The position numbers were made by a program, and so were the translations under genes. Below, in pieces: positions 1 to 23,947 of a DNA stretch of 36,140 bases (its first letter is position 1; the number at the start of each line of letters is the position of its first letter). Below the pieces are notes generated by a model. That model was given only the letters and a program-made list of their open reading frames with translations. It was not told the origin of the DNA and did no database searches. Location: positions 1 to 36,140 of the forward strand of contig JALQXV010000087.1 in the NCBI GenBank assembly GCA_023263015.1. The letters are read 5' to 3'. The DNA is from Candidatus Saccharimonadia bacterium (GTDB taxonomy: Bacteria > Patescibacteriota > Saccharimonadia > Saccharimonadales > 2-12-FULL-41-12).

Positions 1-1384
1 GTCGCTGACCAATAACCGTTCGCACTGTTGACGCGATCAGGAACGGCTCAATACCCATATCAAGTAGACGTGGCAAAATACCGGCTGCAGAGTTGGTGTG
101 TAGCGTGCTAAACACTAGGTGCCCTGTTAACGCAGCCTGAACCGCCAACTGAGCGGTTTCTTTGTCACGGATTTCCCCCACCATTACTACGTCAGGGTCC
201 TGACGCAAGATAGAACGCAGACCTGAAGCAAACGTTAATCCGACTTCGGCATTAACCTGAATCTGGTTAATACCATCCATCTTGTATTCAACTGGGTCTT
301 CAAGGGTAACAATGTTAATTGTGTCGCTTTTAATCTCGTTAAGAAGTGCATACAAGGATGTGGACTTACCTGAACCGGTTGGTCCTGATGTCAGAATCAT
401 GCCATTGGAGTTTTCGAGCCCCTTACGAATTGTGCGTAGTGCTCGACCGTGGTAACCCATATCTTCTAGTTTTAGGCTGGTACCCGACTTATCAAGCAAA
501 CGAATAACTACTTGCTCGCCCCATACCACTGGCGAAATAGAGATACGGAGGTCGACTGCCTTGTTCCCTACTGCAACTGTAAATTGACCATCCTGTGGAA
601 TACGATGTTCATCGATCTTTAGGTTACTTAAAATCTTAATACGAGAAATAAAAGCTGGCTCAATATTCTTTGGCAGCTTCATAATTTCTTTTAGCACACC
701 GTCGATACGACAGCGGATCTTAAGCTCTTTTTCGAGTGGCTCGATGTGAATATCGCTAGCACGACTCTTGGCCGCATACTCAAGAATAGTTGAAAGAGCT
801 TTACTAATTGGCGAGTCCTGAACAATCGTTGTGATCGTCTTATGTTCGTCATTAGCTGGCATTGCCTGCGTTGTCTCGGCTTCAACACTTAGCGAGCTCT
901 TAACATCGTTACCAATCGTCTTAGCTACGTCGGCCTCAACGTCCTCGGCGTACTGCTCAAGTATGTGGCGAATACCCTCTTCACTAGCTGTATAGACCTT
1001 TAACTGCCGTCCAATACGATTAGACAGGAAGTCTACCGCCTGCACGTTATCGGCATCAAGCATAGCAACAACTAGCTTTTGCTGGATCTGGCCAAGCGGC
1101 ACCGCCATATAACGTTCAGCAATATCCTTAGAAAGCAGCCGCAGCACATCCTTTTCAATACGCGCATCAAGTAAGTTCACATATGGTACGTGGTTTACTT
1201 TAGCCATGACTTTTGTCAAAGCCTCATTACTGACCAACTTCTGGTCAACCAAATAGCCAAAGAATGGCTTGCCTTCTTTATCGGCACTCTCTTTAGCAGC
1301 ATTCAATGCTGGCTCAGCAACAATACCCTCACTAACTAAGGTTTCTTCGACTTGTTTCTGGCTCGCTGCAGAAAGAACATTCAC
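1..1384 (-). CDS. pilB: Type IV pilus assembly ATPase PilB/GspE family (3' end runs off the window; C-terminus missing)
   Basis: My own minus-strand translation is open from a GTG at 1384 to position 1. N-terminus VNVLSAASQKQVEETLVSEGIV...RYMAVPLGQ resembles a T2SSE_N domain. Walker A GPTGSGKST is encoded around 362-385. Downstream ...ILRQDPDVVMVGEIRDKETAQLAVQAALTGHLVFSTLHTN is classic GspE/PilB. It is missing from the ORF track because no stop lies inside the window. Confidence 0.9.
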   Translation of the reverse strand, partial: MNVLSAASQKQVEETLVSEGIVAEPALNAAKESADKEGKPFFGYLVDQKLVSNEALTKVMAKVNHVPYVNLLDARIEKDVLRLLSKDIAERYMAVPLGQIQQKLVVAMLDADNVQAVDFLSNRIGRQLKVYTASEEGIRHILEQYAEDVEADVAKTIGNDVKSSLSVEAETTQAMPANDEHKTITTIVQDSPISKALSTILEYAAKSRASDIHIEPLEKELKIRCRIDGVLKEIMKLPKNIEPAFISRIKILSNLKIDEHRIPQDGQFTVAVGNKAVDLRISISPVVWGEQVVIRLLDKSGTSLKLEDMGYHGRALRTIRKGLENSNGMILTSGPTGSGKSTSLYALLNEIKSDTINIVTLEDPVEYKMDGINQIQVNAEVGLTFASGLRSILRQDPDVVMVGEIRDKETAQLAVQAALTGHLVFSTLHTNSAAGILPRLLDMGIEPFLIASTVRTVIGQR

Positions 1385-1397
1385 AACGCAAAGTTAC

Positions 1398-1634
1398 CTA
1401 AAATGGGTTAGCGTTAGCGTCTTCACCAATTTTAATCAATTGTGTTGGGTTGACCGCATCTTTATTGAATACTTTAGGGTCAGCTTCTTTAAACTCTGAA
1501 CTAATTGGCGAAACTTTTTCAACGGTTAGCTTACGATTCTTGTCGCCAGTAAAAAGTTTTTGGGATAAGAACAGCGAGAAAATACCCGCGATAGCGGCAA
1601 CAATTATAATTACTGCAAAGTCTTTTTGTTTCAT
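1398..1634 (-). CDS. Small bitopic membrane protein in the pilus operon (function unknown; occupies the slot where pilP would sit)
   Basis: 78-aa ORF with one N-terminal TM segment (FAVIIIVAAIAGIFSLFL). Its ATG overlaps the TGA of the upstream pilO-like gene (ATGA at 1631-1634). It ends 13 nt before the pilB GTG. Confidence 0.6.
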   Translation of the reverse strand: MKQKDFAVIIIVAAIAGIFSLFLSQKLFTGDKNRKLTVEKVSPISSEFKEADPKVFNKDAVNPTQLIKIGEDANANPF

Positions 1635-2299
1635 TTTGCCCTCTCCGACGTGATATCAAACTTCTTAGGTGGCTGGAAGTATGTTTTTGCGTTCACATTT
1701 AACTTCACACCCTGCGCATTTGACGTTAGGGTTAACTTATTAACCTGGATTGGTCGTATTGATCGCTCAAATAACTTGAGTGCATCTTTACTGGATTGTG
1801 CAGAAGCATCAAGTGTGACACTAAATGGAATTTCTACAACTGTCGGGCTTGAAGATGGCTCTGCAGCCGACTGAGTTAACTCATCGTCGCTACCGGTTAA
1901 GCCCGAAACTTTGTAGTCCTTAAACATCTTAGTAAGGCTAGTTGTTAAGCCTGGGAAGTCATATTTACTTGGTAACGCATCAAGTACGATTCGCGGGTTT
2001 TCGCCATCAAGGTCTCCGGTACCGTCAGCTGCTCCACCAAGAATATTTGTCTTTTGCTCGGCAAAGGCTTGATATGAATTCCTTAGCTTCTCTGCCTCGG
2101 TAGCATTCTTTTTAACTTGCTTTAGCGTAGCCTTTTTCTTGCTTATAACACCCGCTTGGTAACTACTCTGACTTAATAGTGACTTCGATGCTACAAGCGA
2201 AAATACTGTCAAGAATGAAGCAAGCCCAATAACAATAAGAATTGTTGTATTGTCTTTATTAATAGCCAATTGCTTAAGAGATACTCGTTGTGCCGCCAT
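1631..2299 (-). CDS. pilO: PilO-like type IV pilus alignment protein (bitopic, coiled-coil plus C-terminal globular domain)
   Basis: Sits directly after pilN. Has an N-terminal TM (ILIVIGLASFLTVFSLVA), then a K/A/E-rich helical stretch and a C-terminal domain. I prefer the ATG at 2299 (MAAQRVSLKQL) because a GGAGGG Shine-Dalgarno lies about 9 nt upstream. The track start at 2335 would overlap pilN by 35 nt. Confidence 0.6.
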   Translation of the reverse strand: MAAQRVSLKQLAINKDNTTILIVIGLASFLTVFSLVASKSLLSQSSYQAGVISKKKATLKQVKKNATEAEKLRNSYQAFAEQKTNILGGAADGTGDLDGENPRIVLDALPSKYDFPGLTTSLTKMFKDYKVSGLTGSDDELTQSAAEPSSSPTVVEIPFSVTLDASAQSSKDALKLFERSIRPIQVNKLTLTSNAQGVKLNVNAKTYFQPPKKFDITSERAK

Positions 2300-2300
2300 A

Positions 2301-3017
2301 TTATTGACCCTCCTTCTTTTGAGGTTGTGATTCAAACAAGTTAGCCGGCTTTTCTGTCTCTGAGCGGGTTGAAGTAATCTTTGGAACTGTTAAGGTGACT
2401 GCCTCTTGGTTATTTTCTGTTGCAACCTGAGTAAATATTGCTGGTTCGAATGAGAATGTAATACTATATGCTGCTTTATCACTAGAGCCTGTTCCATCAG
2501 GAATGGTATAGCTTGCAAGCACAACGTTCTTAAAGGCTTTTTGTGAAGAGTCACTGCCAGCAACCTTATACTCTGTGAACTTGACTGTATCAACAAATTT
2601 ATTGATCACAATAATGTCTACTGCGTTTCCAGTTATGGTCATTGTACTGCCTTCAAAATCTACAGCCACATCAGATATAGTTGCTTGATTAGGGGTAATC
2701 TTTGTTAGATAGTCCGATAGCCTTGATGCAACAACTTTTTTATCGTGCAGTTCAGGCAAGCTATTCAGTTGATTCTGAATTGTAAGAATCTTATCCAAAT
2801 CTTGAATAGACTGCACTTTTGTAACATTAGTTTTAATGTCTTTGTCTAAGTTCTTAATTTCACGAGTCTGGTTAACTCGTACGAACAAGAATAGGATTAC
2901 AAAGATCGCTAAACACGCCGCTGTGATTATTGCCGATATAAACATAATTAAGCGTTTGCGGTAGCGCGTCTTAATGTATTCAATCTTTACGTCTGGGAGG
3001 AGGTTGAACTGAATCAT
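2301..3017 (-). CDS. pilN: PilN-type fimbrial assembly protein
   Basis: N-terminal IQFNLLPD motif (PilN INLLP signature) followed by a TM (LIMFISAIITAACLAIFVILFLF). Sits directly after pilM. I prefer the ATG at 3017 because GGAGAGGA lies 9 nt upstream; the track start at 3026 abuts that SD. Confidence 0.75.
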   Translation of the reverse strand: MIQFNLLPDVKIEYIKTRYRKRLIMFISAIITAACLAIFVILFLFVRVNQTREIKNLDKDIKTNVTKVQSIQDLDKILTIQNQLNSLPELHDKKVVASRLSDYLTKITPNQATISDVAVDFEGSTMTITGNAVDIIVINKFVDTVKFTEYKVAGSDSSQKAFKNVVLASYTIPDGTGSSDKAAYSITFSFEPAIFTQVATENNQEAVTLTVPKITSTRSETEKPANLFESQPQKKEGQ

Positions 3018-3018
3018 A

Positions 3019-4059
3019 CTATTCATTCCTCTCCGCTAAACCAACAGCAACACCAAAGTGGTTAGACAAGGCCATTAGCTCGTTCTGACGCTCTAGACCG
3101 TACTGAACATTACGCCACGCATTACCAATTTCGACATTAATACCGAATTTGTTCGCGATGTGCAGTGGGAATTCTGGTAGCGCCGATGCACCACCGGTCA
3201 TAATAATTCGTTCAATCTTGGTATTGTTATAGCGAGTCTGGAAGAACTTAATTGATTTATCGATGTCACCCATCAAAAGATCTACCGTACCAACAATCGC
3301 TTGGTACACCTGCCCTTCCAGCTTTTGCTGGCTCAAACCAAATTTAAATACAAATTCTTGAGCTTGCTTATCATCAATATTAAGGTTCTGCTGTGCAGCC
3401 TTAATAATAGCTTCTGAACCAGTTGGGATAGCGCGCGTTAAGCGTGGAATACCTCCCATAACAACTACGATATCGGTGCTCTTGCTACCAATATCGATGA
3501 CCATTTGTGGCTCAGTTGAAAGCGGGTCTGTAACAGAACGAACTAGGGCGAGGTTATCTGACTCAAACGCAATCACATTAAGACCAAGTGACTCTAACAT
3601 GTCTAGACGGTCTTCGATGAACGCGTTAGGTACACTAGAAAGCAATACTTCTACCTTGTTTGGGTCAACTGGTGAATCACCAATATGCGCCCAGTCAAGC
3701 TTTGATTCCGATAGTGGAGTCGGAATCAAGGAGTCGGCTTGGAACTTAATTGTCTTGGCAAGTTCTGCTGCAGATAGTCGTTCAATATCAACCACGGTAG
3801 TGAACACACGTGACGAAGGCAAGCCGACTGCAACGTTTTTTGTAGTGATCTTAGCCTGATCAAGCATAGTTCTGATCTGCTCAGCTATTTTTTGCTGGTC
3901 GGCTTTAGCATCACTTAAGGCAACCTTGCTATCGATTGGAGTCATCGCATAACGCATTAGTTGCTTAGATTTAGGGTTGTTTGTTATTTGGACAGCTCGT
4001 ATAGCACTCGTGCCTACGTCCAAGCCAAAGAATTCAGATACCCCACTCAGTAAACTCAT
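3019..4059 (-). CDS. pilM: PilM, actin-like ATPase of the type IV pilus alignment complex
   Basis: 346 aa. N-terminal FGLDVGTSAIRAV phosphate-1-like motif and a later IDIGSKSTDIVV motif. Length and position upstream of pilN are typical of PilM. Confidence 0.85.
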   Translation of the reverse strand: MSLLSGVSEFFGLDVGTSAIRAVQITNNPKSKQLMRYAMTPIDSKVALSDAKADQQKIAEQIRTMLDQAKITTKNVAVGLPSSRVFTTVVDIERLSAAELAKTIKFQADSLIPTPLSESKLDWAHIGDSPVDPNKVEVLLSSVPNAFIEDRLDMLESLGLNVIAFESDNLALVRSVTDPLSTEPQMVIDIGSKSTDIVVVMGGIPRLTRAIPTGSEAIIKAAQQNLNIDDKQAQEFVFKFGLSQQKLEGQVYQAIVGTVDLLMGDIDKSIKFFQTRYNNTKIERIIMTGGASALPEFPLHIANKFGINVEIGNAWRNVQYGLERQNELMALSNHFGVAVGLAERNE

Positions 4060-4148
4060 TCTTATCTAATCCTATTCTTGCTGCTTTTTCTTCTTTTAAT
4101 GTTATTGGTTACTATTCCCTGTCAGTATATCATACCGCTCATGCTTTT

Positions 4149-7100
4149 CTATAGCACTGGAGCTAAGATCGAGATGTACTGATAGTCACCGCTTGTTTGG
4201 GTACTATTGGCACGGAATACAGGTGGCGAAAGGTAGACTTCTGGGCTGAATTTAAAGGTTTCTGCAGCCTTAGTGTTGTTAGCTTCTTCCCTGAAGAGTG
4301 AGTCACGAAGTGAATAACCAGTTCTGTTAAGAACAACTCTCTGGGCTATAAACGAGCCGTTAACCGTTAGTTGGCGTCGTGGTGATGAGGCAGGATTATC
4401 CTGAGCACCACACTCAGTAAATAGGCTGGTTGGTGCTGTAACTGGGTTATCGCCAGAGCTCTCTAGAGCACATGTATAAATTCGGCCGCTATTTGATCGT
4501 GCATCTGGTTGAGCAATATAGGTCCCATCCAATTGAGTAACATCGTTATCGATATAAATGTTACCTTTTACAACCAATGTGAAGTTAGGAATACTTGCAG
4601 TGCCTGCACCGTAACTTGTCCTGTACATCAAGTTGTTTAAGATAAAGACATCGCCATCTACATACACAGTGTGTCGTCGATCGTACTGAGCAACATTACT
4701 ACCGACAATCCGCAGCTTATTGCCAGATATATTACGCACTGTCTGCTTCTCATTTTCTAGATTGAATGGATCAATACTTGCTGTTGAAGAAGAAACATTC
4801 TTTCTATCGTTCTCAACGAACTGAGTGCTACTGAAGTAGTCTGGCATACACCAACCGTCGCCCGACATGTTTCCACCCAAGAGCGGATCGTTTGACTGCG
4901 CAGGTGCCGAGTTATTGTGTGCAAAAGTTAAACCTTTTGGCTCTTGTACGTTAGGAGGGCCGGTACGTGTACTCGCTGTTGTGTAGCCTCGAATCTCTCC
5001 AAGAGCAAAGGCAGCCAACTGACCACCGGAACCACTCTGTCCGTCGGGGGCACCACTAATGTGGTACTGCATTGGTCGCATGAATGAAAGGATCTTTGAA
5101 TCGGTGCGTCCACAACTAGTTCCAAAACCGCCACCGGCAGCAACGTCACCACCATACGTCCTTATGTATGGCCTATTTACTACAGAAGGAGTTGGGTTAC
5201 AGATTGCACCCGCTTCACAAGGACGACCACAACTATTCGCTTGAGCCGGACCTTCGTTGGCATACTTTCCGTTACCTGGGCCTCGCCAACCATGGCCATA
5301 GTCTAGTGTTATATAAACACAGTAGATATCACCTAACTGGGATGTATTAGCTGGGATGTTATAAGTGTCCGTATAGTCTCTGTTCCCGAAATTCGTTGTG
5401 TCGTTAAATGGTCCAAATGGTATTGGCTGCTCTGCTCCACCCTTTGGTCGCTTATAAAAGTCTCGTCGGGCATTGCTATCGACATCAACTCCACGCTGAG
5501 TAATTGATGTCCGGAACTCAGCCTGCGTAGGGCTTTCTGCATTATCTAATGAACCACGAGCCGCTGCCGTAAAGTCGTATCGCTGATACGCCTCTACTTC
5601 GGTCTGACAAATGCCTCCGAGCGCCATCCTGCCCCAGAAATCAGGGTAGCCTGCTACTGTCGTGACACCTCTTGTCCCTGGTGCAGTAAACGTCATGGTA
5701 GACGTCGCACTACCACCGCGAGGGATATTAAGGTACGGATCATAACTAAAGTCGAATGGTGGATAGTCGTAGTTACCACCTCCATCGGTCATCGTTAGCT
5801 GGTTGCCCCCAAGGGAGTCAGGTATGCCTAGATTCTCGGTTACTGCTTGGCCGGCTAGGCTCCACGTACCGGTACCGCCTCGTGGTTTTTCAGGGTGGTT
5901 ATATACGAATACCGGTATTGCTGCTGCGGGATTATGAATTGTCGCATTCACGTTGAAATTCTCGCCAGCTTTAACGCCCTTATCTGGTGAACCTGGCAAG
6001 TTTTCAATAACGTCTAAGCTACAAGAAGCCTGTAGACAGCCACCTTCAACTTCAGCGCTGTAATACCACCTTGGGTTTGCGTCCCCGCCGTTGCCATTAA
6101 CAACATCGTATGCACCGATATGCATCGCCCATCCGTTATTAGCACCATCTTCGTTGCCCCATGGCCACGGAATCGTATAGCCATCATTTATGTCATCGAC
6201 ATGCCAATCCCAGTTAGCATCGCCGACATCTGCAAATGATTCAACGCCATTGCCATCTACATTTCTATGGAAGAAACGAGCAAACACCTGTAGGCCGTAC
6301 CCTCCGTCTTGAGGATCATCTATGTTCTGTATTGTTACGCCACTACATGTAACGTGAAGCGTGAAGTGAGGCGGAGTCGGTGGAGGCTGACAAGGGTTAG
6401 GGCTTCTACCATAGGTCTCACGGTCTTTTTCATGCCATGCATTCGTTTGCGTATCCTGCACTTCTAGGATGAATGTTATCCTCCCATTTGAGTACGCATC
6501 GTAAATACCAGCAAGACCTGGGACACTATAGTTTTTATATGCAGTTGGGTCCCCTGTATGTGTTCGTTCTGATATAACAGAACTTGTTCCGTTACCGCTA
6601 CTGTTTATGCGACTAACACGTATCTTGGTGTTATCTGTTGGATCCCGATCATAGCCCCTCAAGCGAATATATTCAGATCCCTGCAGGCAAACAACTTTAT
6701 TAATATCACCTTCCGGCTCAGTATTGAACTCACATGAACCATCTGGGTCACGTTCATACGGTGAAACCATCTTAATAGCATTGCCACCGTCGATACCAGT
6801 CCAGCGAACTTCATAACTGTCATATTCCGGCTCCAATCTAATACCAATACGGCCATTCTTCCCTTGACCTCCAACATTATCAACTGGGTCTAGTTTATAA
6901 GGTTTGTTCGAGTTTTTCTTCTTTCTCACTATTTGAATCTTGGCATTCTTATTACGATTGTCGCCGTTGCCATCGTCGGCATCATTCCACTTAAAATAAA
7001 CAACACGTCGAGCCTGCAAATCGCTACATGCTGGATCAAATGTTACTTCATAAGGGCTGCCCGCCCAGACAGTGAATGAGCTATTATCATCCGTACCATT

Positions 7101-7595
7101 AAAATCAGACTCAAACTTACGAGGGTTCTCTAAGGGTGTGATAGTAGAAAGCGGAAGCGGAGATTCAGCGTATACCTTGAAAGGTTGATGACCTTGCCCG
7201 TTAATTTTTCTAGCGACAAGTGTTCGGTTGACTGCTGTATTCTTAAAAATAAGTCCTCGATAATTTTGACCATTATCTCCCCGGTAATTCTCGCAGTCGC
7301 TATTGCTAGATTTCGTAACACCATCATATGTGACTGACATACCGGCAACACCACCAGTTTGGTCGTCACATGCACCATCAACAATGACTGTTGCTCTGTT
7401 AGTATTTTGGCCTTTTATCTTGAGGCGTGTTTCAGTCGCGCTAATATTTGCATTAGGACCTTGGATTGCAACAGACAAAGATCGCCCAAAACTTTCACTA
7501 TAGGCGTACGCAACAGACGTGTTAAGGAACAGCCCTCCTAGCACTGAGACAAATCCAGCGATAAGCAGCTTATGGTATATATTAAGTCGTCGCAT
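4149..7595 (-). CDS. Large (1148 aa) secreted Cys-rich protein of unknown family, encoded directly upstream of pilM
   Basis: Uninterrupted 3.4-kb ORF. N-terminal signal-like sequence MRRLNIYHKLLIAGFVSVLGGLFLNTSVAYA. Rich in G/N/D/Y/W with about 20 Cys. PPPTPP linker encoded near 6365-6398. No prepilin motif, ATPase motif or secretin-like motif recognised. Confidence 0.85.
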   Translation of the reverse strand: MRRLNIYHKLLIAGFVSVLGGLFLNTSVAYAYSESFGRSLSVAIQGPNANISATETRLKIKGQNTNRATVIVDGACDDQTGGVAGMSVTYDGVTKSSNSDCENYRGDNGQNYRGLIFKNTAVNRTLVARKINGQGHQPFKVYAESPLPLSTITPLENPRKFESDFNGTDDNSSFTVWAGSPYEVTFDPACSDLQARRVVYFKWNDADDGNGDNRNKNAKIQIVRKKKNSNKPYKLDPVDNVGGQGKNGRIGIRLEPEYDSYEVRWTGIDGGNAIKMVSPYERDPDGSCEFNTEPEGDINKVVCLQGSEYIRLRGYDRDPTDNTKIRVSRINSSGNGTSSVISERTHTGDPTAYKNYSVPGLAGIYDAYSNGRITFILEVQDTQTNAWHEKDRETYGRSPNPCQPPPTPPHFTLHVTCSGVTIQNIDDPQDGGYGLQVFARFFHRNVDGNGVESFADVGDANWDWHVDDINDGYTIPWPWGNEDGANNGWAMHIGAYDVVNGNGGDANPRWYYSAEVEGGCLQASCSLDVIENLPGSPDKGVKAGENFNVNATIHNPAAAIPVFVYNHPEKPRGGTGTWSLAGQAVTENLGIPDSLGGNQLTMTDGGGNYDYPPFDFSYDPYLNIPRGGSATSTMTFTAPGTRGVTTVAGYPDFWGRMALGGICQTEVEAYQRYDFTAAARGSLDNAESPTQAEFRTSITQRGVDVDSNARRDFYKRPKGGAEQPIPFGPFNDTTNFGNRDYTDTYNIPANTSQLGDIYCVYITLDYGHGWRGPGNGKYANEGPAQANSCGRPCEAGAICNPTPSVVNRPYIRTYGGDVAAGGGFGTSCGRTDSKILSFMRPMQYHISGAPDGQSGSGGQLAAFALGEIRGYTTASTRTGPPNVQEPKGLTFAHNNSAPAQSNDPLLGGNMSGDGWCMPDYFSSTQFVENDRKNVSSSTASIDPFNLENEKQTVRNISGNKLRIVGSNVAQYDRRHTVYVDGDVFILNNLMYRTSYGAGTASIPNFTLVVKGNIYIDNDVTQLDGTYIAQPDARSNSGRIYTCALESSGDNPVTAPTSLFTECGAQDNPASSPRRQLTVNGSFIAQRVVLNRTGYSLRDSLFREEANNTKAAETFKFSPEVYLSPPVFRANSTQTSGDYQYISILAPVL

Positions 7596-8215
7596 TATCG
7601 GGAGCCTCCATCATCACTTTTTACAAATTCTTGGAGTTCAGGGCTTAAAGACTGCAAATCTTTAGGCTCCTTGTTCTTTGGGGCAGAATTTGGATCAGCA
7701 ACATAACCTCTGAGCACCTTTAGTGTTGCGTCCACTGAAGGTATGGCTTCTTTGTCGTCTTGATCTTCACTTGAAACATACAAAGCTCGCAACTGTTCAT
7801 AGCTAGACAATGCTTCAGGATATTGATTTAGCTCGTAATAGCAGCCTGCTCTGTAGCTTACGAGTGATATGTTGTCTGATGGATTGTCGTTATCTGACTT
7901 AGCATCCTTTAGCTTCTCCACTGCAGTTTTGCAGTTCTTCTCATCCATTACTTTTCGCAGCTCTTCTCGACTAATAGTCTTGTTCACGTTACTTGGCTGC
8001 GAATTATCTTGAGACTTTTTATCAAGAACGCCTGTAAGCAATAAAACAATACAAATTGTTGCTAGCGCAATAATTGAAATTCCTAATACAATACGTTTCT
8101 TATACTGTTTTGCTTTTAAATTAAAAGACAAGGTCTTTTTAGAACTACTCGAAGCAGTCTGATCTATGACCTTGTCTTTAGAATCTTTAGCTAGCTTTGT
8201 TTTTCCAAACTTCAT
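7595..8215 (-). CDS. Membrane-anchored protein with TPR-like helical ectodomain
   Basis: 206 aa. K/S-rich N-terminus, one TM (IVLGISIIALATICIVLLLTGVL), then a helical region with a TPR-like segment (YRAGCYYELNQYPEALSSYEQLRALY). Its TAA overlaps the ATG of the 1148-aa gene (TAATG at 7595). Confidence 0.7.
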   Translation of the reverse strand: MKFGKTKLAKDSKDKVIDQTASSSSKKTLSFNLKAKQYKKRIVLGISIIALATICIVLLLTGVLDKKSQDNSQPSNVNKTISREELRKVMDEKNCKTAVEKLKDAKSDNDNPSDNISLVSYRAGCYYELNQYPEALSSYEQLRALYVSSEDQDDKEAIPSVDATLKVLRGYVADPNSAPKNKEPKDLQSLSPELQEFVKSDDGGSR

Positions 8216-8287
8216 TGGTGCCCTTTGAGTATCTAGGGCATATTGTACATGCTTAAAGCGTAAGCAGCAACACCGTTATGTGAACTG

Positions 8288-9376
8288 TTAGCAAATCTTC
8301 TTTGGAGCAGAAGTGAATGTTCTAGAGCCTGACTTCATAACATCACTGCGGCCGTCCGCATTGTGCTGGAAGGTTTGAGATTTCATTGCCACGAAACGAG
8401 ATATAACTTTAACTCGTGCTCGAACGTTCTTTCCGCCGCCTACGCAAACACCTTCTACGTTAGGGATTGTAACTTTTGGCTGGAGGTATTTTTCTGGAGC
8501 CTTATAGCTAAATGATAGTATTTCGGGAAGACTTGTAACGTGGATTACACTGTTACCAACTTGCTTAAAGGCCTTGCCCTTACCTTTACTTACTTGCACG
8601 CTTAGTTCTTGATGACTTTGTCCAACTTTGTCGCAGTACTCTACGCCGCCACCACTCCAAACCTTAGCACTAACAGACTTGTTAGCCTTGTTATAGGTGA
8701 ACGTAGGATTAGGTGTTTGATTCTTAGGATCTTGAGGGCATGTATCAAATAGTGCCTTGCCACTTCTGTCGCCAAGCCACTCATTTGAGCCTCGCAATGG
8801 ATCGCTCTGGAAACTGGCCAATGGACCAGCAGTGCCAGCTGACTTAAGACTAGAAAAATCTACTGCCTTAAAGCTTGGGCAGAAAACTGCATCGGCTTTG
8901 TTACCGTCTTTTAATGTGATCGACTTAAAGCCAATCTTGTAGCTAGTTTTAGAAGGAGCAGGACATACATATGAGACTTGAGTACTTCCATCAGGAAGCT
9001 GTTGGGCTGATTCAACTTTTTGCGTTACATCTGTGCTTACACCAGGGATAGAATTAATCACCTTAGCGCCAAACTGGTCAGTTGTTACAGGATCGCCTAC
9101 CTGAGCGGCTCGTACTGCAGGCGTCAGATCATCTATATATAGGTTAGTTGCACTTGATTCTACTACCTTAGCTGGTGCGGCATTCGCTTTTGATACACCG
9201 ATTGCTGCTGTTGCTGCAAGCGTTGCACCAAGTGCAGACGCTGCTACAAATAATCTATTTTCTGCCAATCCGGCAAAAAGTCCGCGTTCGGCTGTTGCGG
9301 CATCGCCTAAATGTGCTACACTTAAGTCTTGCCCTTGAGTCAGAACAGCTTCGTGGGAAAAGTCTCGTTCATTCAT
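8288..9376 (-). CDS. Secreted or membrane-anchored protein of unknown family (about 362 aa)
   Basis: Has a hydrophobic segment LFVAASALGATLAATAAIGV followed by SKANA-AP, a signal-peptidase-like site. The mature part has 8 Cys and no motif I recognise. I prefer the ATG at 9376 (MNERDF), with AGGAG 8 nt upstream, over the track TTG at 9400. Confidence 0.7.
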   Translation of the reverse strand: MNERDFSHEAVLTQGQDLSVAHLGDAATAERGLFAGLAENRLFVAASALGATLAATAAIGVSKANAAPAKVVESSATNLYIDDLTPAVRAAQVGDPVTTDQFGAKVINSIPGVSTDVTQKVESAQQLPDGSTQVSYVCPAPSKTSYKIGFKSITLKDGNKADAVFCPSFKAVDFSSLKSAGTAGPLASFQSDPLRGSNEWLGDRSGKALFDTCPQDPKNQTPNPTFTYNKANKSVSAKVWSGGGVEYCDKVGQSHQELSVQVSKGKGKAFKQVGNSVIHVTSLPEILSFSYKAPEKYLQPKVTIPNVEGVCVGGGKNVRARVKVISRFVAMKSQTFQHNADGRSDVMKSGSRTFTSAPKKIC

Positions 9377-9458
9377 CTCATGATCTCCTAATATTGTCAA
9401 TTCGCATTATACCAAAGAACTAGTGTTTTGTCAATTTTTCGTAATTGTTACATAATAT

Positions 9459-10166: not shown

Positions 10167-11069
10167 CTATTTGTTTAGTTCGTGTCCACCGAACTTATTG
10201 CGCATTGCCGCTAAAAGCTTAGTCGCAAAATTAACATCGCCCTTCTGTGAAGCCAAACGTACGTCAAAAGAAGCTTCAATCGCTGGTAATGGTATGCCCT
10301 TCTCTTTAGCAACTTCAATGGTCCAGCGAGCTTCACCAGACTCGGCCACAAAACCGTCGATCCCCTCTAGTGTTGGGTTTTCACGAATTGCATCACGGGT
10401 TAGTTCGTTGAGCCATGAAGTAACGACACTGCGGTGCTGCCAAACTTCTCCGGCGGCGGCTAGGTCTAACCCTTCGTAGGGACCTTCTTTGAGCATACGA
10501 TAGCCTTCGGCAAGTGATTCCATCATGCCGTATTCAATGGCGTTATGAACCATTTTTACGTAATGACCAGAGCCTGAGGGGCCAAAATGCTGGTAAGCGC
10601 CAGTAGGAGCTGCCAACGTTTCAAAAGCTGGCTTAAGCTGGTCAAAAACTAGTTCTCCGCCGCCAATCATCATTGAGAATCCGTTTTGGTAACCCCATAC
10701 ACCGCCGCTTGTACCAGAATCGAGCAAGGTTGAACCTGCTGCTTCAACTTTTTTGGCACGCTGTTGAGTAAGCCTAAAATCGGAGTTGCCACCGTCGATA
10801 ATGATGCTGCCCTGAGGTAGTATGGCTAGCCACTCTTCAAGCTGATCATCAATCGTCTCGGCTGGAACCATAACCCACAGTACTACTTGTTCACCTTCAA
10901 AGGCCGATACAACATGCTGTTTTTCGTAGGCGGCAGTGGCGCCGTAAGTCACTGCTTGATCAACTTTTTCTGAGCTACGGTTATGAGCAATTACATCGTG
11001 GCCACCTTCGGCTAGTTTTCGAGCAATTTGCATGCCCATTCGTCCAAGTCCTGCTACTGCGATTTTCAT
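10167..11069 (-). CDS. gnd: 6-phosphogluconate dehydrogenase, short (about 300 aa) decarboxylating form
   Basis: N-terminal Rossmann motif MKIAVAGLGRMGMQIARKL. Also GGNS..., HYVKMVHNAIEYGMM and the C-terminal ...FGGH pattern typical of the 6PGDH family. GGAGGG SD lies upstream. Confidence 0.8.
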   Translation of the reverse strand: MKIAVAGLGRMGMQIARKLAEGGHDVIAHNRSSEKVDQAVTYGATAAYEKQHVVSAFEGEQVVLWVMVPAETIDDQLEEWLAILPQGSIIIDGGNSDFRLTQQRAKKVEAAGSTLLDSGTSGGVWGYQNGFSMMIGGGELVFDQLKPAFETLAAPTGAYQHFGPSGSGHYVKMVHNAIEYGMMESLAEGYRMLKEGPYEGLDLAAAGEVWQHRSVVTSWLNELTRDAIRENPTLEGIDGFVAESGEARWTIEVAKEKGIPLPAIEASFDVRLASQKGDVNFATKLLAAMRNKFGGHELNK

Positions 11070-11136: not shown

Positions 11137-12234
11137 ATGAGTCTATCTATTGCTATCGTTGGTTTGCCAAATGTTGGTAAATCAACCCTATTCAACGCCC
11201 TAACAAACAACAATATTTTGGCTGCAAACTACCCGTTTGCCACAATCGAGCCAAACACTGGCATCGTACCGATCCCCGACTTTCGTTTAGATAAACTAGC
11301 CGAACTATACAACTGTAATAAAGTAGTGCCTGCCACTGTGACTTTTGTAGATGTCGCTGGGCTTGTTAAAGGTGCTAGCCAAGGCGAAGGACTGGGTAAC
11401 CAGTTTTTGAGCCACATTCGCAGCTGTAATGCAGTTTGCCAAGTCGTGCGCGCCTTTTCTGACAGCAACGTACTGCACGTAGATGACACGCCTGACCCAC
11501 TTAAAGACATCGACGTAATTAACACTGAGCTAGTTTTAGCCGATCTGCAAACGGTCGAAAAGCGTTTGCCTCGCATGGCCAAAGAATCTAGGGCCAACCC
11601 AAAGTTAAAACCAGAAGCCGATTTTTTGCAGCTCGTTAAAGAAACTCTCGACAAAGACACGCCACTTCACGCAGTGCCAGAAATAGCTGAACACAAATTG
11701 TCCGACTGGCTTCGCCAAGAGTTACAATTATTGACTCTAAAGCCGATTATGTATCTGTTCAACGTCGACGACGATGTGCTCGCAGACCAATCTAAAAAAG
11801 ACGAATTAGCCCAACTCGTAGCCCCCGCCCGTGCCTTATTTGTCAGCGCCAAGCTCGAAAATGAACTACGCGAACTACCCAGCGAGGACTCAGCTGAGTT
11901 GCTCGAAAGTTACGGTGTCACCGAGTCTGGCCTCGTCCAAGTGATCCATAATGCCTACGATATCCTTGGTCTTCAGAGCTACCTTACAGCTGGCGAAAAA
12001 GAAGTTCGTGCCTGGACGGTTCGCCGCGGGGCAACCGCGCCTCAAGCAGCTGGTGTTATTCATGGCGATTTTGAAAAAGGCTTTATTGCGGCATCTGTTG
12101 TCGACTATAACGATCTTATTGCGGCTGGCTCCGAAACTGCTGCTAAAGCCGCCGGAAAAATGCGCACAGAGGGTAAAGACTACATTATGCAACCAGACGA
12201 TGTGGTGGAGTTTAGGTTTAACGTCTCTAAATAA
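11137..12234 (+). CDS. ychF: Ribosome-binding ATPase YchF
   Basis: 365 aa. IAIVGLPNVGKSTLFNALT P-loop, central coiled-coil insert, and a C-terminal TGS-like RAWT...GDFEKGFI motif. Confidence 0.95.
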   Translation: MSLSIAIVGLPNVGKSTLFNALTNNNILAANYPFATIEPNTGIVPIPDFRLDKLAELYNCNKVVPATVTFVDVAGLVKGASQGEGLGNQFLSHIRSCNAVCQVVRAFSDSNVLHVDDTPDPLKDIDVINTELVLADLQTVEKRLPRMAKESRANPKLKPEADFLQLVKETLDKDTPLHAVPEIAEHKLSDWLRQELQLLTLKPIMYLFNVDDDVLADQSKKDELAQLVAPARALFVSAKLENELRELPSEDSAELLESYGVTESGLVQVIHNAYDILGLQSYLTAGEKEVRAWTVRRGATAPQAAGVIHGDFEKGFIAASVVDYNDLIAAGSETAAKAAGKMRTEGKDYIMQPDDVVEFRFNVSK

Positions 12235-12285
12235 CCGTACTATTTCGTACAGCGTTAGCTCAGCAATTAACCGTATACTTAATTT

Positions 12286-12735
12286 ATGACTCATACCAAA
12301 CTAGCCCTTATTGTGGTTTCACTGTTTGTTCTTACCGTAGCTGGATTTGCTCTGTTCCAGCTTGGAAGCAATCCTAAGCCCAAAACTGAACAAGCTGGAC
12401 AATCAGCGCAAGCTCCGCTTGCTCCTAGTGAACAACAATCCGTCACTCCAGAATCTGACTTTAATATAAACGCATTAGAATTTGATCTAGTTGCTTCAAA
12501 TGTTGCATGTACCGGAAACAACGGCGTTAACACCTGTGCCGGTACTATTACCCTAGTAGAAGGCGGCGGCACAAGTGACCGCGGCATCTTTAAAATTAAT
12601 GATGATACTAAACTTTTGCATGATGGCCTGCCCCAAGAATTAATGTCTCTACAAGAACTTGCTCAGGGGCAAACCAAGGTACGAGTCACACTTGTTCAGG
12701 ACTCACTGGACACGCTCAAAGAGATTAGATATTAG
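12286..12735 (+). CDS. Membrane-anchored hypothetical protein
   Basis: 149 aa. N-terminal TM (LALIVVSLFVLTVAGFALF), a low-complexity Q/P/S linker, then a small C-terminal domain. TATACT at 12274-12279 ends 6 nt before the ATG. Confidence 0.55.
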   Translation: MTHTKLALIVVSLFVLTVAGFALFQLGSNPKPKTEQAGQSAQAPLAPSEQQSVTPESDFNINALEFDLVASNVACTGNNGVNTCAGTITLVEGGGTSDRGIFKINDDTKLLHDGLPQELMSLQELAQGQTKVRVTLVQDSLDTLKEIRY

Positions 12736-12744
12736 TTCAGATAA

Positions 12745-12765
12745 ATACTTGACATTATCAAGTAT
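12745..12765. promoter_or_regulatory. Perfect 8-bp inverted repeat (ATACTTGA-N5-TCAAGTAT) overlapping the -35 of the ABC transporter promoter; candidate operator
   Basis: Read directly: atacttga at 12745-12752 and tcaagtat at 12758-12765. It overlaps the TTGACA at 12749-12754. Confidence 0.4.
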
Positions 12766-12778
12766 CCCACGCTATGCT
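12749..12778 (+). promoter_or_regulatory. Candidate promoter of the ABC transporter operon (TTGACA-18-TATGCT)
   Basis: TTGACA at 12749-12754, TATGCT at 12773-12778, ATG at 12787 (8-nt gap, no SD). Confidence 0.45.
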
Positions 12779-12786
12779 ACTCACTA

Positions 12787-13545
12787 ATGTCTGCACTACA
12801 CGTTGATAAATTAGAGAAAACGTATGCATCTGGGACACAAGCACTTAAGGGAATCAGTTTAGATATTCCTGAAGGTTCTTTCTTTGGTCTACTTGGCCCA
12901 AACGGCGCCGGTAAATCAACCCTAATCCACTGCATCATGGGGCTTGCCATGCCCACCGGCGGAAAAGCCGAAGTTTTTGGTCACGATATCGTTAAAGATT
13001 ACCGTGCTGCCCGCTCATTAGTTGGGCTTGCTCCTCAAGATGTAAACCTTGACTGGTTCCTAACCGTAGAAGAAACGCTTGACTATCACGGTGGTTACTA
13101 CGGCATGCCAAAAAAAGAACGTCGTGAACGAACCGACGAACTACTCGAAGCCTTTTCTCTTACGGAAAAGCGTGAATCTCGTGCCATGCAACTTTCGGGT
13201 GGTATGAAGCGCCGAGTCGTTTTAGCCCGTGCGCTCATGCACAAGCCAAAGATGCTGATCCTTGATGAACCGACCGCTGGTGTTGATGTTGAATTACGTT
13301 TAGACCTCTGGAAATACATGCAAAACGTTAATAAAAAAGACAAGACAACAATCTTACTTACCACCCACTATATCGAAGAAGCCGAGCAACTTTGCGACAA
13401 CCTTGCGCTAATTAACCATGGCCAAATCATTAAAACCGGTACCAGCGCAGAGCTTAAAAAACATTACAAGCAAAAAGACCTCGAAGGTGTTTACTTAGCA
13501 TTAATTGGTCGTGACGAAAAAGCTATTAAGGCAGGTAAAAAGTAA
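12787..13545 (+). CDS. ABC transporter ATP-binding protein (ABC-2/DrrA-like exporter type)
   Basis: Walker A GLLGPNGAGKST, signature LSGGMKRR, Walker B MLILDEPTAGVD. The stop overlaps the start of the permease gene (ATG at 13545). Confidence 0.9.
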   Translation: MSALHVDKLEKTYASGTQALKGISLDIPEGSFFGLLGPNGAGKSTLIHCIMGLAMPTGGKAEVFGHDIVKDYRAARSLVGLAPQDVNLDWFLTVEETLDYHGGYYGMPKKERRERTDELLEAFSLTEKRESRAMQLSGGMKRRVVLARALMHKPKMLILDEPTAGVDVELRLDLWKYMQNVNKKDKTTILLTTHYIEEAEQLCDNLALINHGQIIKTGTSAELKKHYKQKDLEGVYLALIGRDEKAIKAGKK

Positions 13546-14315
13546 TGCCCTACGGTCTACTCCCTTTCTGGACAGTCTTGCGCCGTGAGCTAACACGTTT
13601 CTGGGGCATTAAACGCCAAACAATTCTTGGGCCAGTATTAGAAACTTATCTATATATCAGTGTATTTGGAGCATCACTCGGTAGTCGAATCGACCAGCTC
13701 GACGGCCACCGCTACATCGTATTTATTATCCCTGGCTTATTAATGATGAGCTTTGCTATTAACATCTTCTCGAACAACGCGTCATCTATCATGCAGCAAA
13801 AATTGCAGCGCTCAATTGACGACCAGCTAGCTTCGCCAGTTTCCAATACGCAACTACTACTTGCATACGGACTCGGCGGTTTTGTGCGCGCGCTAGTGAT
13901 CACTGGTATTACCTATGTAACCGCCCTACTTCTAATCCATGACTTGCCAATGGCGCATCCATTCTTATTTGCTCTTAGTTTTATATTAATCGGTCTATTC
14001 TTTGCGATGGCCGGTGTGCTAGTCGGTTTACGAGCTGAAAAGTTTGATGATCTTAGCTTGTATCAAACATTCATCTTGCAGCCGCTTATTTTCTTGGGTG
14101 GCGTGTTCTATTCCGCATCGCTACTACCGCACACGTTCCAAGTGTTAACGCAGTTCAATCCAATCTATTACATGATTAACACCGTTCGCTATTCAATGCT
14201 CGGTACAGCCGACGTAAACGTTGCAATCAGCCTAAGCGTGATTGGCGCTTTTGCCTTAGCGCTCTTTGCAGTTAACTACCATCTGTTCAAGCGCGGCTAT
14301 AAGCTTCGTAGTTAA
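13545..14315 (+). CDS. ABC-2 type transporter permease
   Basis: 256 aa with about 6 predicted TM segments. Translationally coupled to the preceding ATPase. Length and topology are typical of ABC-2 permeases. Confidence 0.8.
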   Translation: MPYGLLPFWTVLRRELTRFWGIKRQTILGPVLETYLYISVFGASLGSRIDQLDGHRYIVFIIPGLLMMSFAINIFSNNASSIMQQKLQRSIDDQLASPVSNTQLLLAYGLGGFVRALVITGITYVTALLLIHDLPMAHPFLFALSFILIGLFFAMAGVLVGLRAEKFDDLSLYQTFILQPLIFLGGVFYSASLLPHTFQVLTQFNPIYYMINTVRYSMLGTADVNVAISLSVIGAFALALFAVNYHLFKRGYKLRS

Positions 14316-18628: not shown

Positions 18629-19381
18629 TTAGGCAGCAAGTAGCCTTTGTTCAACAGTGGCTTTAAAATGATGCAATGAATTTGAATTTACCCTTACAAA
18701 GCGTTTAGTAACGTGACGCATCGTTACATGTATATCCGGACGTACATAGCCGTCCTTTTTAAGTTCTCTGTAATGAGCGTCGAGCGGCTCAAGCGATATG
18801 TCCAAGGCAACCCCTAGCATAAATCGTGCCAAAGAAATCTTTTTATCCGGTTGAGTTTTGCTATCAAGGAATTCGTCAATCAATGAGTTATCTATATAGT
18901 CTTCAACGTTCTTGGTTGCGGCATAGTCAGCTATAAAGTCACCAAGGTATCGATGTTTATCAATTTTGGTTACTGTCGGTCTTGTAAGTTTTGAGTAGTC
19001 TGACGAAGATAAATCGACTACTCTATAGCCCCCAAAGCTGGCTACATCTACGGCTTGTTGTGGAACTACTCCTGCTGCTGCCAAAACTGTTTGCCTAAAG
19101 CAATCTGAATTAAGCATTGGTAGCTCTGGCCCCTCAAACAGTCGGTGATAATTATCATGAAGTGTACGGTTAACCATCTGTATACGACTATTTCGTACTG
19201 CTAGTCCAGATACACCGCCGAGCAACAAATGGTTCTTTGGATGAAAGGCATGATGGGCGTCTACTCGATTATCTATACCCCTATTAAAATAAAACAACGA
19301 GCCGCGGGGCTCGTTGGGCAAGATAGGTAATGGGAGTCCGGTAACTTCGCAACTTGGAGCTTTTAACAGTTCGTGTTCCAC
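18629..19381 (-). CDS. Hypothetical protein with an N-terminal HNH/His-Me-finger-like motif lacking the usual Cys ligands
   Basis: 250 aa. Residues about 41-80 read DAHHAFHPKNHLLLGGVSGLAVRNSRIQMVNRTLHDNYHR. The spacing matches HH-x3-P...GG...N...H-x3-H of HNH nucleases. The C-terminal 170 aa are unrecognised. Confidence 0.55.
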   Translation of the reverse strand: MEHELLKAPSCEVTGLPLPILPNEPRGSLFYFNRGIDNRVDAHHAFHPKNHLLLGGVSGLAVRNSRIQMVNRTLHDNYHRLFEGPELPMLNSDCFRQTVLAAAGVVPQQAVDVASFGGYRVVDLSSSDYSKLTRPTVTKIDKHRYLGDFIADYAATKNVEDYIDNSLIDEFLDSKTQPDKKISLARFMLGVALDISLEPLDAHYRELKKDGYVRPDIHVTMRHVTKRFVRVNSNSLHHFKATVEQRLLAA

Positions 19382-22033: not shown

Positions 22034-22771
22034 ATGCGCAAAACACTTAGTGAACGAATACTAACTATTCCAAATAAATTATCTGGCGGGCGTGATCGTC
22101 GAGACGACGTTTCTTATGGCCCGCATGAGGACATGAAATACGATGAGTTTCCCAATGATGGACCGATAGTTATGTTCTGGCACGGTGGCAGCTGGACTAC
22201 CGGAAATAAGGAAATGTATCGCTTTGTTGGCAACATGCTGCAAAAACTGGGTGCACACGCTATTGTCATGGGCTATCCTCGCTTTCCAAAGCAAACTTTC
22301 CCAGGCTTTATAGATGATGCTACGCGAGCAATTGAATTTGTGCGCGCACAGTATCCCAACCGCAAAATTTATGCCATGGGGCATTCAGCTGGCGGCCACA
22401 CTGCCCTAATTGCCGCCATGACCCACGAAGTAGATGGCGTAATTGCCATTGCAGCTCCGTGCAATCTTTCTGAACGTTACTGGAGTGAAGTGTTTGGTGA
22501 TAGTTTTAAAGATAAAAAGCATGACCCCCGCACCTACGTTGCTAGCTCAAAAAGACAGCCAAAATTTTTACTTATTCACGGCGCAATTGATCATACGGTG
22601 CTCGTTGCTGATTCTATATCTCTGCACAGACGGCTTAAAAAGAATAAACTCCAGTCTGAGTTATCTGTTATTAAGCTTGCGAATCACTTCACGATACTCC
22701 CCTTGCTCGTATGGGGGCCCCTTTTTAGAACACGAGCAAAGATTAAGCAGTTTATTCTGAGCGAGCGCTAA
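22034..22771 (+). CDS. Alpha/beta hydrolase (esterase/lipase-type)
   Basis: HGGSW oxyanion-type motif, a GHSAGG nucleophile elbow, and a late IHGAIDHTV segment with the putative catalytic Asp/His. Confidence 0.8.
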   Translation: MRKTLSERILTIPNKLSGGRDRRDDVSYGPHEDMKYDEFPNDGPIVMFWHGGSWTTGNKEMYRFVGNMLQKLGAHAIVMGYPRFPKQTFPGFIDDATRAIEFVRAQYPNRKIYAMGHSAGGHTALIAAMTHEVDGVIAIAAPCNLSERYWSEVFGDSFKDKKHDPRTYVASSKRQPKFLLIHGAIDHTVLVADSISLHRRLKKNKLQSELSVIKLANHFTILPLLVWGPLFRTRAKIKQFILSER

Positions 22772-23675: not shown

Positions 23676-23947
23676 TTTGATAAGGCCTCCCCTTCTAGCT
23701 TTAGAAAATACTGGTGCATAGTATGCCAAATTGCCTCGACTACGTCTGGATCAAGCTTATTGTCGGTAGCTCGTTGGCGACATTTATCAAGTACCGCTTG
23801 GAATCTAGCTGGCTGTAGCGGTGCCATATTATGTTCAGCTTTATAGCGAATAACACCTTCAACCTCGGCTTTTCGTGCTGCGAGCAGGTCAATAATCTGC
23901 GCGTCAATTACGTCGATTGCTTGTCGGTGTTCGTCTAATGTACTCAT
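23672..23947 (-). CDS. Chorismate mutase, AroQ class (monofunctional, 91 aa)
   Basis: LDEHRQAIDVIDAQIIDLLAARKAEVEGVIRYK is the AroQ helix-1 pattern. Size and all-helical character fit. ATGA overlaps occur with both neighbours. Confidence 0.8.
   Translation of the reverse strand: MSTLDEHRQAIDVIDAQIIDLLAARKAEVEGVIRYKAEHNMAPLQPARFQAVLDKCRQRATDNKLDPDVVEAIWHTMHQYFLKLEGEALSK

Follow-up and report, generated by a model that had tools for sequence, protein, structure and literature searches.

What large exported proteins are encoded directly ahead of the type IV pilus (T4P) assembly genes of environmental Saccharibacteria, and do they belong to the pilus? The stretch analyzed here (hereafter the window) is a 36,140-nucleotide (nt) sequence from a Candidatus Saccharimonadia bacterium (contig JALQXV010000087.1, assembly GCA_023263015.1), in which three genes, referred to below as gene A, gene B, and the giant, precede pilM. 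The original prediction, made from the sequence of the window, described these genes as a three-gene cassette of unrecognisable secreted and membrane proteins forming a pilus-associated surface module, for example, a tip or adhesion complex. The data presented here suggest that the families of the giant and of gene B probably represent an unstudied part or accessory of the host-attachment pilus of environmental Saccharibacteria, because members of both almost always occur directly before the T4P assembly genes. The principal features are as follows.

4149-7595, minus strand: the giant, 1148 amino acids (aa)
7503-7595, minus strand: Sec type I signal peptide of the giant (residues 1-31), ending AYA, with a helix at residues 6-24
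5214-7487, minus strand: variable all-beta region of the giant (residues ~37-794), a predicted tandem array of beta-sandwich domains
4191-5213, minus strand: conserved C-terminal domain (C-domain) of the giant (residues 795-1135), family-defining and read as a beta-solenoid
4152-4190, minus strand: C-terminal tail of the giant (residues 1136-1148), ending ...ILAPVL
7595-8215, minus strand: gene B, a single-pass membrane protein of 206 aa with a transmembrane (TM) helix at residues ~38-68 and a predicted outside tetratricopeptide repeat (TPR) domain
3019-4059, minus strand: pilM (PF11104, 1.4e-40; TIGR01175, 3.2e-47)

The giant family and its position ahead of pilM

Searches of curated resources recovered no relatives: the giant has zero matches in Pfam and NCBIfam, 44 family members scanned singly likewise have none in Pfam, and sequence searches of PDB with family profiles returned nothing. 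Word-indexed protein searches gave 4, 5, and 2 matches and identified three relatives. However, an exhaustive HMMER search with a profile of three relatives returned 3194 cluster representatives at E ≤ 1e-3, 1977 of them at E ≤ 1e-30, with most matches aligning over the C-terminal half of the giant. Because this search overturned the sparse word-indexed result, the giant cannot be considered an orphan. A scan of genomes with patterns drawn from the clade-specific N-terminal region confirmed zero relatives. Species-representative genomes yielded 61 giant-family loci (individual loci carry L numbers below), nearly all labelled Candidatus Saccharibacteria or Saccharimonadales. These searches show a family that is very large, uncurated, and, as judged from sequence and source labels, close to Saccharibacteria-specific. 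The description of the proteins as unrecognisable thus holds for curated libraries; it does not hold more broadly, as the giant and gene B each fall within a large uncurated family. Four loci (L034, L055, L008, and L029) carry a Saccharibacteria-type operon on contigs labelled Pristimantibacillus, Babeliales, or Parcubacteria; these odd labels probably stem from mistakes of binning or labelling in the source metagenome-assembled genomes.

Every gene of the operon was traced by hidden Markov model (HMM) searches of the open reading frames (ORFs) in all fetched loci. PilM itself is securely assigned in the window, with scores above the curated cut-offs (PF11104, 139.8 bits vs. 27; TIGR01175, 161.2 vs. 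133). In 59 of the 60 giant-anchored loci with 300 nt or more of downstream sequence, pilM is the next same-strand gene, L036 being the sole exception, and it is followed by pilN, pilO, a small gene, pilB, and pilT; distances between the giant and pilM are mostly 8-200 nt, as measured between stop-to-stop ORFs, and so approximate the intergenic gaps. The reciprocal sample consisted of 80 metagenome contigs with the PilM sequences closest to that of the window (66-80% identity). Among the 64 of these loci with at least 400 nt upstream, a family gene ends no more than 800 nt upstream of pilM in 59, lies slightly farther upstream in three, and is lacking in two. Same-strand adjacency persists across PilM divergence to ~55% identity and giant divergence to ~25-30%. 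The neighborhood of the giant beside pilMNO is therefore conserved (59/60 giant-anchored and 59-62/64 PilM-anchored loci), and its homologs are clearly not scattered at loci without T4P linkage.

The cultured Southlakia epibionticum presents a different arrangement: YchF ends 12 nt before pilM, and there is no giant gene at that position (Table S1, PMC10633639). Among the genes inspected in its other two T4P regions, none is of the giant's size. The lack of the giant at pilM in this organism probably explains why the family has gone unstudied.

Sequence conservation is distributed unevenly along the giant. In comparison with 40 distant members, identity is mostly 11-21% up to residue 650 (and ~0.3 in some later bins), versus 28-58% from residue 800 on. 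The C-domain carries the conserved motifs PYxRxYGxDV, GSGxQLAA, GLTFAN, YVDGDVxI, IPxFxLVVKGNIYI, QLDGLYIAQP, GxIYTC, QLxVNGAF, and AAExF, and residues D817, R1091, and E1112 show little or no variation. The tail follows the consensus (S/T)LPP(V/I)(L/F) at the free C-terminus of essentially every complete homolog, long or short, with P1146 and L1148 invariant in 44 sequences. A sortase, PEP-CTERM, or similar sorting signal was considered for this motif and rejected, as no TM helix or charged tail follows LPP, which forms the free C-terminus. At the other end, ~60 family N-termini share a K/R n-region, a hydrophobic core, and an AxA type I cleavage site; none contains the G-1/E+5 prepilin motif. 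Neither gene A, gene B, nor the giant matches a prepilin (PF07963, TIGR02532-type), ATPase, or secretin family in Pfam or NCBIfam. The signal peptide and TM assignments of the original prediction are borne out by these data, as is its statement that the three proteins lack a prepilin leader, an ATPase motif, and a secretin region.

The full-length AlphaFold2 (AF2) model, built from a 44-sequence alignment (mean predicted local distance difference test score, pLDDT, 75.8; predicted template modeling score, pTM, 0.44), comprises the helix at residues 6-24, a low-confidence linker, and a series of all-beta domains, and is not a pilin fold. Foldseek searches with this model retrieved generic multi-immunoglobulin (Ig) and macroglobulin arrays at TM-scores of ~0.1; homology to complement C3/C5 or alpha-2-macroglobulin was rejected on this basis, as these hits reflect generic strings of such domains. 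The C-terminal 354 residues, modeled in AF2 with an 80-sequence alignment, gave a pLDDT of 90.4 and a pTM of 0.90, while the last ~13 residues (the tail) are disordered in both models (pLDDT < 50). No PDB structure matched the C-domain at E ≤ 1e-3, and BFVD returned zero matches. The best PDB match was ComZ (6qvi_B; E 0.029, probability 0.47, TMq 0.29), followed by several ice-binding proteins, also weak (E 0.11-4, target TM-score 0.26-0.37), with tapirins (E 4-7) lower and a pectate lyase and a tailspike among the weak matches; the DUF3494 family of Pfam, which recognizes the triangular right-handed beta-solenoid and flanking helix of ice-binding proteins, was matched neither by the giant nor by the 44 family members. 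The matching part of ComZ is a beta-solenoid of the ice-binding type, for which a location at the pilus tip has been proposed (PMC6561018). We read the modeled C-domain as a beta-solenoid without a close solved relative, because of its strand pattern and its weak neighbors, the ComZ match itself being a solenoid; this reading is not a family assignment. The nearest folds to the model, all of them weak, are pilus-related or adhesin-type solenoids (ComZ, ice-binding-type proteins, and tapirins).

In some genomes, the family is represented by short forms (340-370 aa) that consist of a signal peptide and the C-domain alone; the N-terminal array is absent, and the genes are still positioned at pilM. 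Upstream of the short-form genes in L035, L045, L046, L050, L053, L054, L056, L058, and L061, a TTGC or TTGAC box lies ~17 nt ahead of an invariant TATAAT or TATACT, which is followed by GCTTATGT and then ATG; GCTTATGT falls among the 14 nt directly before the start codon (in L053, for example, ~7891-7904). As a sequence pattern, this arrangement looks like a strong promoter producing an almost leaderless mRNA, as distinct from the window, where a leader of ~22 nt contains AGGAG. Other genomes carry two or three tandem giant paralogs before a single pilM (L015, 6813-16321; L023, 6144-15609; L026, 6705-11497; L033, 6365-12178), an arrangement that fits diversification of the variable N-terminal part. 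In L047, the giant homolog is split into three short ORFs (7165-9385) and pilB into two (12179-14034), reflecting either a decaying locus or sequencing frameshifts. Within the variable region, the motif WxDADDGxGDNxNKNA (~6950-7010 of the window; giant residues ~195-218) is invariant in the close clade, and its W-x-D-x-D core is widespread in the long forms. In sequence, this motif resembles calcium-binding loops of the DxDxDG type; PilY1 has a functional calcium site.

Gene B, gene A, and the operon

Gene B tracks one part of the giant family. Its 37 N-terminal residues are Lys-rich and predicted to lie on the inner side of the membrane, and conservation of its cysteines is complete for C95 and C125 and lacking for C55. 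Searched alone against Pfam, gene B reaches TPR_2 at E 0.004 and 17.6 bits, below the cut-off of 27. A profile built from 26 positional orthologs, however, matches consensus TPR proteins at 1e-20 to 3e-88 and the Hop TPR2A domain at 3e-7, and TPR_2 is matched by 11 of the 26 family members individually (best 1.5e-11). About two TPR motifs are present. These comparisons show, at the level of sequence profiles, that the family consists of membrane-anchored two-TPR proteins; the TM plus TPR-like character originally proposed for gene B is thereby upheld, its TPR component at the family level. Iterative HMM searching places the family in 28 loci. A B-like ORF (120-300 aa with an N-terminal TM helix, ending at the start of the giant) abuts the giant in 34 of 54 loci, so that its neighborhood is also conserved, and HMM searches confirm 26 of these 34 as family members. 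The B-like gene lies beside 34/43 long forms versus 0/10 short forms (Fisher p = 5e-6, without phylogenetic correction). Gene B thus tracks the N-terminal extension of the giant and not its conserved tail. TPR domains are classical binders of C-terminal peptides, and binding of the giant's tail by the TPR domain of gene B was therefore considered as a candidate interaction; it is now judged less likely, because the tail persists where no gene B adjoins, being kept in 10/10 short forms and in long forms lacking gene B.

The ORF map and the junction sequences agree that genes A, B, and the giant are co-oriented on the minus strand and run into pilM, with gaps of 72 nt between genes A and B (8216-8287) and 89 nt between the giant and pilM (4060-4148), as the original prediction had described. 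The gene B stop and the giant start overlap by 1 nt (TAATG at 7595), and overlaps recur in all three closest relatives (4 nt in L001, 11 nt in L002, and 8 nt in L003); gene B and the giant are therefore translationally coupled in the window and its closest relatives. Neither gap contains a terminator-like site or RNA structure above shuffled background (z-scores 0.17 and −0.17), consistent with the earlier observation that no convincing terminator precedes pilM. Gene A and the putative promoter of the operon are located as follows.

8288-9376, minus strand (ORF 8288-9400): gene A, a Sec-type secreted protein of 362 aa as read from the ATG at 9376
9406-9434, minus strand: sigma-70-type promoter, TTGACA, 17-nt spacer, TG-TATAAT, with a 12/12 hexamer match

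The promoter, with its extra upstream TG, is the top-scoring site within the 11.2 kb scanned; it lies between gene A and the stop (9459) of a phosphoribosyltransferase-like gene and is likely the start of the operon. From it, a leader of ~22 nt containing AGGAG leads to gene A. The most likely start of gene A is the ATG at 9376, which has AGGAG 8 nt upstream and yields a 362-aa product identical to a database record; the product is secreted and contains Cys, as first described, and its length is likelier 362 than the 370 aa originally assigned. Its leader includes a hydrophobic segment at residues 41-62 ending ANA-AP, and its six Cys are all invariant in a three-sequence alignment. Gene A has zero matches in Pfam, NCBIfam, and PDB. 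Its relatives are confined to L001-L003 among the fetched loci and occur in 0/80 PilM-anchored loci; in other genomes, the corresponding slot holds proteins without BLAST-level similarity to it. On this sequence distribution, gene A is a clade-specific addition outside any conserved cassette, so that of the three genes originally grouped together, the giant and gene B form the conserved pair and gene A is limited to the close clade of the window. The locus L005 (2316-6576) keeps the window's upstream order, with YchF on the opposite strand followed by ORFs of 300, 217, and 206 aa, gene B, and the giant; the 206-aa ORF occupies the gene A slot, is unrelated to gene A, and has no Pfam match, while the 300- and 217-aa ORFs are identified from size and order alone.

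The genes downstream of pilM, all on the minus strand, are as follows.

2301-3026, minus strand: pilN-like single-pass membrane protein, weak PF05137 match (E 0.015), TM helix at residues 23-55
1631-2335, minus strand: pilO-like single-pass membrane protein, weak T2SSM match (E 0.0019), conserved position
1398-1634, minus strand: gene for a 78-aa single-TM protein in the pilO-pilB interval, conserved position
1-1387, minus strand: pilB, the extension ATPase, partial (continuing past the window end); T2SSE 3.5e-108, MshEN 3.2e-14

The pilN-like gene follows pilM in all loci, and the pilO-like ortholog in L001 has a weak match to PF04350 (PilO). The 78-aa gene, which was absent from the original gene listing, is present in essentially every locus reaching that position and has no family assignment; the gene at this position in S. 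epibionticum (SEML1_0107, 228 nt) is essential by transposon sequencing (Table S1, PMC10633639). PilB contains the Walker A motif GPTGSGKST. A single operon beginning at 9434-9406 would comprise gene A, gene B, the giant, pilM, the pilN-like and pilO-like genes, the 78-aa gene, and pilB.

The wider window reads single-stranded DNA-binding protein, ribosomal protein S6, elongation factor P, TlyA, a beta-lactamase-like serine hydrolase, and YchF, followed by the pilus genes, the same order as around pilM in S. epibionticum (Table S1, PMC10633639). This synteny and the labels of the related loci identify the source organism as an environmental Saccharibacterium. Biosynthesis genes at 22752-25530, 32935-34236, and 10167-11069 encode a prephenate dehydrogenase/dehydratase fusion carrying an ACT domain, a class IV aminotransferase, adenylosuccinate synthetase, and a protein resembling 6-phosphogluconate dehydrogenase. 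Since this biosynthetic capacity exceeds the usual descriptions of Saccharibacteria, genome reduction may have gone less far in this organism than in cultured strains. Two further ORFs, at 12286-12735 (plus strand, 149 aa) and 18629-19381 (minus strand, 250 aa), have no Pfam match.

Proposed role of the giant at the pilus

We infer that the giant most likely is exported through Sec and serves as an accessory or adhesin of the pilus, with a TPR protein as its co-factor. The giant would be exported by Sec and cleaved after AYA, and its C-domain and tail would then dock to a component of the pilus system that is itself invariant. Candidates for this component are the tip pilins, the minor pilins, and the domains of PilN, PilO, or the small protein that face outward. 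The fast-evolving N-terminal beta-sandwich array would project outward as the surface- or host-binding part. In this the giant would work as PilY1/PilC and other non-pilin accessory proteins do, without belonging to the PilY1/PilC family. Gene B, produced together with the giant, would serve the long N-terminal extension rather than the tail, holding or chaperoning it outside the membrane, and gene A would be a recent clade-specific secreted addition. In our judgment, the case for this particular combination (docking by the C-domain and tail, outward binding by the variable array, and gene B holding or chaperoning the extension) is evenly balanced. A more far-reaching version, which we regard as somewhat unlikely, would make the C-domain family an unrecognised core T4P component, acting as a fibre primer or cap or as a wall-spanning guide, with the N-terminal array as a major host determinant and with loss of the family from cultured oral and mammalian strains.

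Several observations weigh against an accessory role or temper it. The link between the giant and the pilus is genomic, and no result places the protein on a pilus; of the surface module originally proposed, the pilus linkage is conserved, and the tip or adhesion complex stands as an interpretation. Both samples of loci are biased, the giant-anchored loci having been found via two C-domain peptide patterns and the PilM-anchored loci comprising only the 80 PilM sequences closest to that of the window, and the Fisher test relating gene B to long forms takes no account of shared ancestry. The family is dispensable for at least some Saccharibacterial T4P, because S. epibionticum has no giant at pilM and no gene of that size among those inspected in its other two T4P regions. 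A weaker promoter-like site within the giant/pilM gap (4124-4151, minus strand; TAGAAA, 16 nt, TG-TATACT; 9/12) indicates that pilM could also have its own transcript. Structural matches to the C-domain fall below significance, with TM-scores of 0.2-0.37, and the putative solenoid assignment depends on the strand pattern of a model and on these weak neighbors.

The same evidence may be read in other ways. The giant could be a structural ring, collar, or conduit in the envelope, steering the fibre across the wall or surface layer of a cell that lacks an outer membrane, with gene B assembling or anchoring it, as a functional analog of the secretin PilQ and its TPR pilotin PilF/PilW/Tgl; in diderm type IVa pilus (T4aP) systems, a TPR pilotin is paired with the secretin. 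The near-universal position directly ahead of pilMNO and the translational coupling of the giant to a TPR partner are as expected for such a part, and the retention of position and a strong promoter of its own by the C-domain-only short form would imply a core and not merely adhesive role. However, no secretin or other ring-forming family was detected, the N-terminal half is variable and in some genomes tandem-duplicated, which would be unusual for a stator or conduit, and the TPR partner is missing from 10/10 short forms. Gene B is moreover TM-anchored with two TPR motifs, rather than a lipoprotein with about six, and S. epibionticum has no such protein at pilM; we therefore consider a structural part unlikely.

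A role as cargo or enzyme, outside the pilus itself, appears quite unlikely, though certain features of the giant are consistent with one. The protein might be cargo that the pilus, working as a type-II-secretion-like piston, drives out across the wall, with the tail as loading signal, or else a solenoid enzyme acting on peptidoglycan or polysaccharide, either opening the cell's own wall for the fibre or attacking that of the host. The giant is exported by Sec, is not itself anchored, and ends in a peptide that is conserved yet unstructured, features compatible with both; short terminal peptides dock secreted proteins onto tip minor pilins in TcpF/TcpB and CofJ/CofB. For an enzyme in particular, the (nearly) invariant D817, R1091, and E1112 could be cited, together with the prevalence of beta-solenoids among polysaccharide lyases and hydrolases and the pectate lyase and tailspike among the weak structural matches. 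Yet Pfam, NCBIfam, and PDB sequence searches identified no catalytic family, the best fold neighbors (ComZ and ice-binding proteins) are non-enzymatic, and a long variable beta-sandwich array is more typical of adhesins. It is very improbable that the giant is instead a general surface or S-layer-type protein with a wall-binding C-domain, placed at pilM for historical and not functional reasons. A conserved anchor with a variable exposed part does also describe wall-bound proteins, strong promoters precede the cassette, and model strains make pili without the giant; but same-strand adjacency to pilM in 59/60 and 59-62/64 loci across wide divergence, with short gaps and no terminator in the gap of the window, is hard to explain without selection for co-expression.

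A pilus accessory or adhesin, as preferred here, would bear on how these bacteria meet their hosts. T4P are essential to the epibiotic life of cultured Saccharibacteria (PMC10633639, PMC11623550, PMC9894109), and Saccharibacteria are amenable to natural transformation (PMC10633639). Most sampled environmental Saccharibacteria encode a member of this large secreted family, often with a TPR partner, directly ahead of pilM. If the variable N-terminal half is indeed the binding part, it is a candidate determinant of host range. The families of the giant and gene B have no curated model or solved relative, and no description of them was found in the literature searched, the coverage of which is incomplete; with its conserved domain, tail motif, and fixed gene position, the giant family deserves a profile and a name.

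Comparison with known pilus systems

Among the closest parallels are PilY1/PilC of the Pseudomonas, Neisseria, and Myxococcus T4aP, which, like the giant, are large (~1000-1300 aa) non-pilin proteins with a Sec signal, a conserved C-terminal domain, and a variable N-terminal part, occur as paralogs, and are encoded in T4P clusters. The giant shares this set of features; however, it has no sequence match to PilY1/PilC, and neither it nor the 44 family members match the Pfam family Neisseria_PilC. Its modeled C-domain is not a beta-propeller and has no propeller neighbors, and its gene lies ahead of pilM, rather than in a minor-pilin operon, and has a TPR membrane partner. PilY1/PilC associate with the pilus tip via the minor pilins; the window contains no pilin gene, and the relative locus L001 encodes a 146-aa N_methyl protein at 20021-20461.

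ComZ of Thermus thermophilus (PDB 6qvi) is the best, if weak, structural neighbor of the C-domain, with a solenoid of the ice-binding type inserted in a pilin fold that has an N-terminal pilin helix (PMC6561018). The giant, in contrast, begins with a cleavable Sec signal peptide, lacks a pilin domain or motif, and shows no sequence similarity to ComZ. Tapirins of Caldicellulosiruptor are secreted, non-pilin solenoid surface binders from bacteria without an outer membrane, and their genes lie beside T4P genes; they are adhesins with solved C-terminal domain structures. Their structural match to the giant is insignificant (E 4-7), and the position and gene partners of the giant differ from theirs; to our knowledge, neither a (S/T)LPP(V/I)(L/F) tail nor a TPR partner has been described for tapirins. 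The pairing of PilF/PilW/Tgl with PilQ resembles that of gene B with the giant in placing an outside TPR protein with a large beta-rich exported protein beside pilMNO. Gene B differs in its TM helix in place of a lipid, its two TPRs rather than about six, and its lack of a lipobox Cys, and neither the secretin domain PF00263 nor the secretin N-domains were found in the giant by Pfam or NCBIfam or among the 44 members.

Within the Saccharibacteria, PilX1/PilX2 of Nanosynbacter lyticus TM7x are, like the giant, large and encoded at a T4P locus, with no predicted PilD signal. They are proposed tip proteins with glycan-binding C-terminal domains, described as pilin-fold proteins with a jelly-roll or seven-bladed propeller domain (PMC11623550). 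The giant was considered as an equivalent of TM7x PilX1 and set aside, as YchF and pilM are immediate neighbors in the related cultured strain S. epibionticum, leaving no room for a giant, and PilX1 is distinguished by its described pilin fold. Non-pilin pilus accessory proteins are thus already known, and the giant family is new among them; if its C-domain and tail do dock to the pilus system, it would add a new type of accessory to the pili of bacteria that lack an outer membrane.

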